Assembly: GCA_951406725.2 (NCBI GenBank)
Contig: OX597827.1
Location: 72,664,001 to 72,728,000 of the forward strand
Length of the DNA: 64,000 bases
Source: Octopus vulgaris
Taxonomy: Eukaryota
Direction: 5' to 3'
The translations under genes were made by a program, and so were the position numbers. The notes beneath the pieces were generated by a model. It searched no databases. It was not told the origin of the DNA and worked only from the letters and a program-made list of their open reading frames with translations. Of the stretch, positions 15,551 through 16,603 are shown piece by piece. Every line of letters starts with the position of its first letter. Within the stretch, counting starts at the first letter, position 1.

Positions 15551-15767
15551 CACTACACCACATGACTTTACACATCACATCACATATGATGTGCCATACT
15601 AATACACACACCAATACTAATATGGCATTTTTATAAAAATAAGAATAAAGCTGACCGCTTATTAGCTCCATGAGGCCATCGCCTTAAGTTAGCTATTTGA
15701 TACACAAACTGTATCCATATAACCTTTGAACAAGGGAGGTCAGTCGCTCCACACTACTTGGCCGGCA

Positions 15768-15808
15768 GCTACAGACGCTTTCGGGGTATTGCCCCTTTTC
15801 AATGCAGC
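15768..15808 (-). ncRNA. Type I hammerhead ribozyme (U3-A8 core variant; stem III 1 nt short)
   Basis: GCTGCA-TTGAAAA-GGGGCAATACCCC-GAAA-GCG-TC-TGTAGC. Confidence 0.65.
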
Positions 15809-16277
15809 GTAGCCAAACCAGTAGGTGTCGCTTCTGACAATCTCTGTTCAAAGGTTTTATTTACCTAGCTTCGGTGGAATACATCCACTTGTTTTCAATA
15901 ATAGAAATATTAAAATTACTAAGTCTCTCTAAAAGAGAACAACGGCAGCGTTCCCGGAAAATATTAGTTATCGCCATACTAATATGGCATTTTTATAAAA
16001 ATAAGAATAAAGCTGACCGCTTATTAGCTCCATGAGGCCATCGCCTTAAGTTAGCTATTTGATACACAAACTGTATCCATATAACCTTTGAAAAAATGCC
16101 ATATTAGTATGGCGATAACTAATATTTTCCGGGAACGCTGCCGTTGTTCTCTTTTAGAGAGACTTAGTAATTTTAATATTTCTATTATTGAAAACAAGTG
16201 GATGTATTCCACCGAAGCTAGGTAAATAAAACCTTTGAACAGAGATTGTCGGAAGCGACACCTACTGGTTTGGCTAC

Positions 16278-16319
16278 GCTGCATTGAAAAGGGGCAATAC
16301 CCCGAAATGCGTCTGTAGC
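16278..16319 (+). ncRNA. Type I hammerhead ribozyme (U3-A8 core variant)
   Basis: GCTGCA-TTGAAAA-GGGG CAATA CCCC-GAAA-TGCG-TC|TGTAGC; stems I and II pair. Confidence 0.75.
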
Positions 16320-16603
16320 TGCCGGCCAAGTAGTGTGGAGCGACTGACCTCCCTTGTTCAAAGGTTATATGGATACAGTTTGTGTATCAAATAGCTAACT
16401 TAAGGCGATGGCCTCATGGAGCTAATAAGCGGTCAGCTTTATTCTTATTTTTATAAAAATGCCATATTAGTATGGCGATAACTAATATATATATATATAT
16501 ATATATATATATATATATATATATATATATATATATATATATATATATATATATATATATATATATATATATATATATATATATATATATATATATATTA
16601 TAT

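Follow-up and report, generated by a model that had tools for sequence, protein, structure and literature searches.

The window, a 64,000-nt stretch of the Octopus vulgaris genome, contains two copies of a type I hammerhead within 15614-16486, one on each strand, as found by reading the sequence directly and by alignment (Table 1). In the plus-strand copy, a stem I of 6 bp (GCTGCA at 16278-16283 pairing with TGTAGC at 16314-16319) encloses the core TTGAAAA at 16284-16290 (residues U3, U4, G5, A6, A7, A8 and A9), a stem II of 4 bp (GGGG-CAATA-CCCC, 16291-16303), GAAA at 16304-16307 and C17 at 16313. An earlier note on this DNA had proposed both the U3-A8 core and stem II, which direct reading of 16284-16303 confirmed, and its predicted cut position agrees with our placement of C17. 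Its loop II of GGCAATA was read too long, as the GG is part of the stem and the loop is CAAUA. When compared to the commonest hammerhead form of the family, GAAACGCGTC, each window copy has a private change in stem III, a C>T at 16308 in the plus-strand copy and a stem one base short in the minus-strand copy. Because both deviate in this way, the window copies may be weaker ribozymes than the commonest form, and we counted these private changes against the retrozyme model developed below.

Stem I had also been said to extend into a long closed rod, and folding bears this out: closed by the strands CTTTGAACA (16233-16241) and TGTTCAAAG (16355-16363), the predicted rod has an energy of -57.7 kcal/mol (z -6.3, with 0 of 200 shuffles equally stable), and its 3' base lies at about unit positions 221-242. 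As a predicted circle, the whole 363-nt unit (GC 40%) has a minimum free energy of -115 kcal/mol (z -5.1 versus 60 shuffles) with 64% of its bases paired. Among the open reading frames of the window, none of 150 aa or more runs across the unit. Rfam detected no hammerhead, either at gathering score over the whole window or at E up to 5 over 15550-16650; weak miRNA matches in this interval were rejected because the inverted repeat and the TA run gave rise to them.

The hammerheads lie in two arms whose 5' ends face each other and are joined via a short A run near 16092. The tandem-then-inverted layout described earlier is therefore present as head-to-head arms, with the unit length corrected from ~362 to 363 bp by tandem spacing. 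With the right arm ending at E1, E2 is where the left arm would be expected to have ended originally; the outer end of the left arm now lacks the usual last 13 nt and is joined to a Penelope 3' region. Of the (TA)n end reported before, only the right side stands. The tail contains a hairpin (TCTCT-TTT-AGAGA, 16148-16160) common to the 360-bp family described below, and the hairpin preceding E1 has equivalents in the 360, 359 and 355-bp families.

Table 1. Features at the 363-bp repeat locus and related features of the window
Feature	Position	Strand	Remarks
Penelope-like retrotransposon, 5'-truncated, frameshifted	13850..15613	+	RT + GIY-YIG-type region, stop at 15602
Left arm, 483 nt, 1.33 units	15614..16095	-	Unit positions 231-363 then 1-350
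Hammerhead copy, U3-A8 core	15768..15808	-	Predicted cut after 15774; sequence and alignment
Right arm, 395 nt, 1.09 units	16092..16486	+	Unit positions 332-363 then 1-363, outer end E1
65-nt 'tail' between fixed ends E1 (unit 363) and E2 (unit 65)	16124..16188	+	
Long rod extending stem I (predicted)	16233..16363	+	Folding versus shuffles; arm truncations cluster at its 3' base
Hammerhead, type I	16278..16319	+	Short near-palindromic stem III; predicted cut after 16313
Hairpin GCCATA-TTAG-TATGGC directly before end E1	16461..16476	+	
(TA)n tract	16485..16606		Likely insertion target
Sister family, 360 bp, core CCGACGA	42492..46748		10.8-unit minus arm + 1-unit plus arm bearing tail

To place the locus within its family, we searched the Octopus vulgaris assembly (2.8 Gb). 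An exact 31-nt core pattern gave 868 matches while its reversed control gave 0, so the hammerhead motif is real and chance is excluded. A DNA search with the unit returned 1302 first-look candidates, and all of the best-scoring 40 sites were read (23 + 17 distinct sites after overlap removal), a choice that therefore over-represents the youngest copies. At these 40 of 1302 sites, full units are about 99% identical, with a mean difference from the majority of 0.9% over 82 full units, and the tandem spacing is 363 bp, with at most about 4.3 units in an arm. Loss of the U3-A8 pair in other copies, which the earlier note would have taken as refuting its reading, is not seen: 90 of 90 cores, located by anchors lying outside the core, have U3 and A8, and 67 of the 90 are identical over the 34 nt read. 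The 363-bp family is young, as seen in this sample of best-scoring sites. Contigs of four sequencing runs that we guessed to be RNA, none being so recorded, also cover the unit; they have the family C at 16308 and no change listed at positions 3 or 8, and strand, ends and circles are invisible in them.

The same best 40 of 1302 sites supply the counts in this paragraph and reveal a consistent insertion anatomy, with head-to-head arm pairs at 33 sites, single arms at 7 and no other layout. The outer ends map to unit position 363 (E1) or 65 (E2), and 27 of the 28 two-armed sites with intact ends have one E1 and one E2 end (binomial p 2e-7); five further two-armed sites have one damaged end. A (TA)4 or longer tract holds 66 of 73 outer ends. 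At 14 of 15 informative sites (p about 0.001) the two arms are alike in their allele at the commonest variable position, the sole exception being the window itself, which counts against the model. Of 73 arms, just one stops at the cleavage site and 56 extend through it, so we rejected a cut linear monomer as the template. Inner ends instead concentrate at unit positions 221-242 (23 of 73; 0 of 10000 scans as high), a result that holds for arms over one unit (14 of 48; 2 of 10000 scans as high), and at 25 of 33 joints the two arms have 1-6 nt in common, as judged by BLAST ends that may add a base or two. Target site duplications are mostly hidden because the flanks are (TA)n; one site outside (TA)n (L140) has a probable repeat of about 10 bp, seen by eye.

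We inspected 22 sites of the 360-bp family, whose tail is 44 nt. All 12 two-armed sites with both ends fixed have one end of each kind, and the other 10 are single-armed, damaged or run off the locus edge; these counts were made by eye, and the query contained the tail and so favours tail-bearing arms. The layout of two fixed ends, one per arm, is what we read as the Penelope 'tail' signature. In the window, the 42-kb array of this family (42852-46382) has variants common to blocks of neighbouring units, a pattern that differs from mutation arising independently after a single copying round. A single pass round one circle leaves such blocks unexplained, which counts against that step of the mechanism proposed below, and they suggest that the templates were multimers, that templates were switched or that the array expanded locally afterwards.

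The earlier note had viewed the 363-bp repeat as a sister family of the 42-kb system despite a different primary sequence. The kinship is supported, but the sequences are less different than supposed, with about 52% identity between the 360- and 363-bp units and an alignment that extends beyond the ribozyme (z 4.2 without the hammerhead core; 0 of 200 shuffles as high). Together with common hairpins and the same two-end head-to-head layout, this supports reading the units as sister families of one system. Pattern searches also turned up a 359-bp family (78% identical to the 360-bp family), a 355-bp family (z 8.6 versus the 363-bp unit with the core removed) and older relatives. Each of the four units has a hairpin before the first end, a tail hairpin, a loop II of the CAAUA type and a stem III that is palindromic but spelled with many different letters. 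Among 34 distinct hammerheads of the clade, stem I and II pairing and stem III palindromy were above all 2000 shuffles, a comparison that yields no probability because the rows are related, and in which five incomplete rows lower the observed values.

The 355-bp retrozyme also has a long form, found in 25 places (L228:7128-9200, L269-L280; G000 C3, C5, C6, C7, C10, C17), with an insert of about 1.85 kb in stem I, immediately 5' of the hammerhead core. The insert has a decayed gag-like frame with a zinc knuckle and an apparent 13-bp duplication, and the composite matches the retrozyme in its ends, in being truncated 5' and in having head-to-head arms. We considered an RT inside this long form and rejected it, as the passenger is gag-like. 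Possibly the insert is a LINE-derived, Tx1-like passenger riding the retrozyme.

The core of the 363-bp family was said to combine C3>U and G8>A so as to preserve the known 3-8 base pair, and this holds, as U-A covaries in the clade and is an already published natural hammerhead variant (PMC3088659, PMC4209133). Genome-wide, scaffold matches number 1305 for C3-G8, 1636 for U3-A8 (U4 only), 172 for U3·G8 and 17 for C3·A8, the last scattered. Most of the U3·G8 matches listed belong to a subfamily that has been amplified within the 360-bp lineage, often as arrays, and the C3-G8 form of this lineage is accompanied by a U4C change (core CCGA; L161-L173). In a tree with the core masked, built from 42 of 54 segments (12 were dropped as too short or too divergent for trimming), neither U-A (AU p 4e-33) nor C-G (4e-8) forms one group, and the 3-8 pair requires at least four changes. 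The C-G form of the 42-kb array is nested within U·G forms, which lie beside U-A forms. The tree is unrooted and the program warned of long branches meeting, so the direction of this walk is a suggestion only. Overall, the pair covaries across the clade, with an amplified wobble U·G intermediate. Our literature search found no activity data for C3U/G8A, and in the texts searched, which included few subscription papers and no supplements, we found no description of an amplified U·G intermediate or of a two-end rule for retrozymes.

By its features, the 363-bp repeat resembles the non-LTR retrozymes of animals (coral; mussel, ~350-390 bp; axolotl/newt satellite 2; PMC7229834, bioRxiv 2026.07.22.740005) in having a short tandem unit within 150-450 bp, a type I hammerhead per unit with a short palindromic stem III, GC under 50%, a strongly self-paired predicted circle, no coding frame, no LTR layout and co-existence with Penelope-like elements (PLEs). 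Its helix I of 6 bp, helix II of 4 bp, short palindromic helix III and 3-8 pair match the canonical metazoan type I hammerhead as defined in PMC4209133. It differs in that U3-A8 is the family's standard form, and the main texts of the two retrozyme papers do not describe the head-to-head arms, tail and (TA)n targeting present here. These latter features are those of EN+ PLEs (PMC8557442, PMC3846280, PMC11167929), which have partial tandems, an inverted 5'-truncated head-to-head arm, a tail that is often confined to one end and a bias to AT-rich or (TA)n targets; an inverted head-to-head arm, a one-end tail and an AT-rich target are all seen at most of the best 40 of 1302 sites. Unlike EN+ PLEs, the unit has no RT or GIY-YIG frame, its tail is 65 nt (44 in the 360-bp family) versus 30-40, and its hammerhead is canonical rather than minimal. 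The compensated pair is the one found in natural U3-A8 hammerheads (PMC3088659), including a Schistosoma Cercyon PLE variant with about 1300 hits (PMC4209133), and earlier work cited in these two papers reports such hammerheads active in vitro. Here, unlike in those published cases, C-G, U·G and U-A are all amplified subfamilies of one clade in one genome. Judged from the literature, the 363-bp repeat is a new family of a known class, and the motif alone is ordinary because both the element class and the U3-A8 core are already known.

The Penelope copy just upstream raises the question of whether the repeat belongs to it, in which case the unit would be its pLTR and the locus a single Penelope copy whose pLTRs are tandem and inverted. 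An RT match was obtained for the upstream frame, which belongs to a young family (2085 candidates). The position noted earlier is correct, as the junction with the unit lies 11 nt past the stop codon, and near it Penelope and the unit minus strand have a 12-13 nt word in common. Imperfect homology at the junction, between the Penelope 3' region and this minus strand, would fit priming at a break or a later deletion alike. Our comparisons do not support the implied tie, however. The window copy has lost its last ~620 bp with its own hammerhead, while all 29 other copies fetched run about 620 bp further, through their own minimal hammerhead, to end at one site in (TA)n, and the 363-bp unit is in none of the 29, at the 3' end or elsewhere. 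In addition, the proximal arm is antisense to the frame, and the missing Penelope end was looked for to the right of the unit and not found. Checking other copies of the unit for linkage to Penelope frames, as the note had suggested, gave three sites near the same or a related Penelope (L025/L062, L061, L135), each separated by a TA-rich tract. We consider it very improbable that the unit is this pLTR, and from these comparisons the neighbour is an incidental one and no part of the retrozyme. A further minimal-hammerhead-like Penelope 3' end lies beside (TA)n at 42068-42146 (minus strand), weakly similar to the end of the neighbour's family, and a tandem at 39911-40333 begins with the same end sequence.

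We also looked for an autonomous partner by searching the retrozyme loci that we had fetched with two to four PLE proteins as tblastn queries. Among the loci searched, no RT + GIY-YIG frame ends in or is bounded by the 363-bp repeat, and the matches were neighbours behind TA-rich tracts, besides those at L106/L107, L125 and L155. At L181:1968-4600 and L225-L227, an arm of the 359-bp family is fused head-to-head, through a joint with two short switch patches, to a 5'-truncated Penelope-like element that differs from the neighbour (PLE-X; 1783 first-look candidates). PLE-X was rejected as partner because its own pLTR is unrelated and because the four copies of the fusion share flanks and so represent one duplicated event. 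Neither the neighbour's family nor PLE-X has a retrozyme-like pLTR, and the search turned up no autonomous element with such an end, which counts against the model. At L030/L063 a unit arm adjoins frames that we take to resemble a Helitron helicase region. Elsewhere in the window are a copy resembling 5S rRNA in which many positions are unpaired, probably a pseudogene (18834-18952, minus strand), a block at about 47900-61300 of four tandem repeats of about 3.65 kb with recurring simple repeats and frames, and a 147-bp tandem array with higher-order variants of 225 and 372 bp (4645-8019).

We favour, with a probability of roughly 80%, the reading that the locus is a head-to-head insertion of a non-coding repeat with a hammerhead fold, likely a non-LTR retrozyme that is pasted into (TA)n by a borrowed Penelope-type RT-endonuclease. 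Under this reading the arrays would be transcribed, and the palindromic stem III would let neighbouring hammerheads cleave as dimers, releasing monomers that a host ligase may join into circles, by analogy with PMC7229834. The enzyme would nick both target strands, and cDNA would start at E1 on one strand and at E2 on the other, from one RNA or from RNAs of the same source. Each cDNA would run round the template, often stopping at the rod base, before the two are joined via a few shared bases; in the window, the left arm now abuts an unrelated Penelope copy at its 3' region, from which about 620 bp are missing. Such twin priming is suggested by the in vitro behaviour of a PLE protein, with which both target strands were nicked and extended and two internal start sites bound the tail (PMC11167929). 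An alternative reading of the head-to-head arms is self-priming on an antisense template, by which head-to-head pLTRs have been explained (PMC3846280). That retrozymes derive from PLEs has been argued from co-occurrence and pLTR similarity (bioRxiv 2026.07.22.740005). In its strictest form the favoured reading makes each insertion a footprint of a dimeric Penelope enzyme acting on one RNA circle from two mutually exclusive fixed starts on both strands, with a 3-8 pair walking between U-A and C-G via an amplified U·G; we hold this more tentatively, at somewhat under even odds.

The circular template faces a competing account, in which a Penelope-type enzyme inserts uncleaved linear multimer transcripts of existing arrays, the hammerhead is a pLTR relic or a regulator and a circle is unneeded. 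Hammerhead cleavage is dispensable for PLE insertion in vitro, where the RNA used was predominantly unprocessed and mutating the hammerhead left insertion normal (PMC11167929). Of nine dimers of Xenopus retrozymes, moreover, just one underwent cleavage in vitro (bioRxiv 2026.07.22.740005), a result that we counted against the retrozyme model. The arms that cross the cut site (best 40 of 1302) fit an uncleaved multimer as well as a circle and so count against requiring the latter, and the block-wise variants of the 42-kb array are in keeping with multimers. On the other side, the ribozyme has a strong purifying pattern, evident in the rarity of C·A against C-G and U-A, its stems and stem III palindrome are retained despite many changes, and the expression of related repeats in animals is for the most part as circular RNA (PMC7229834). 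We regard insertion of uncleaved multimers as possible but unlikely, and circular templates as the analogy we would follow. Growth of a satellite at the DNA level by unequal crossing-over and ectopic (TA)n recombination, with the fold-back as a by-product, would also produce block-wise variants, and local amplification has been proposed for retrozyme tandems (bioRxiv 2026.07.22.740005). However, it leaves unexplained the fixed ends found one per arm (27 of 28, best 40 of 1302), the variable inner truncation at an RNA-structure boundary and the selection on an RNA catalytic core. As an account of the insertions we find it improbable, although DNA-level amplification may still lengthen arrays once inserted.

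The value of the family lies in its young copies, which record a likely mode of pasting. The integration of animal retrozymes is still a proposal (PMC7229834), and the origin of the tandem and inverted structures and tails of PLEs has been called undefined (PMC8557442). If true, the strictest form of the reading would tie the circles of animal retrozymes to Penelope twin priming and explain both the Penelope tail and the inverted arm. A non-coding RNA of 363 nt whose two ends and stall site are mapped, whose ends follow a one-of-each rule and whose hairpins are conserved would be a minimal substrate for the PLE assay already established in vitro (PMC11167929). Within the clade, C-G, U·G and U-A cores that occur naturally in near-identical backbones would likewise allow a fitness comparison of the hammerhead 3-8 pair.
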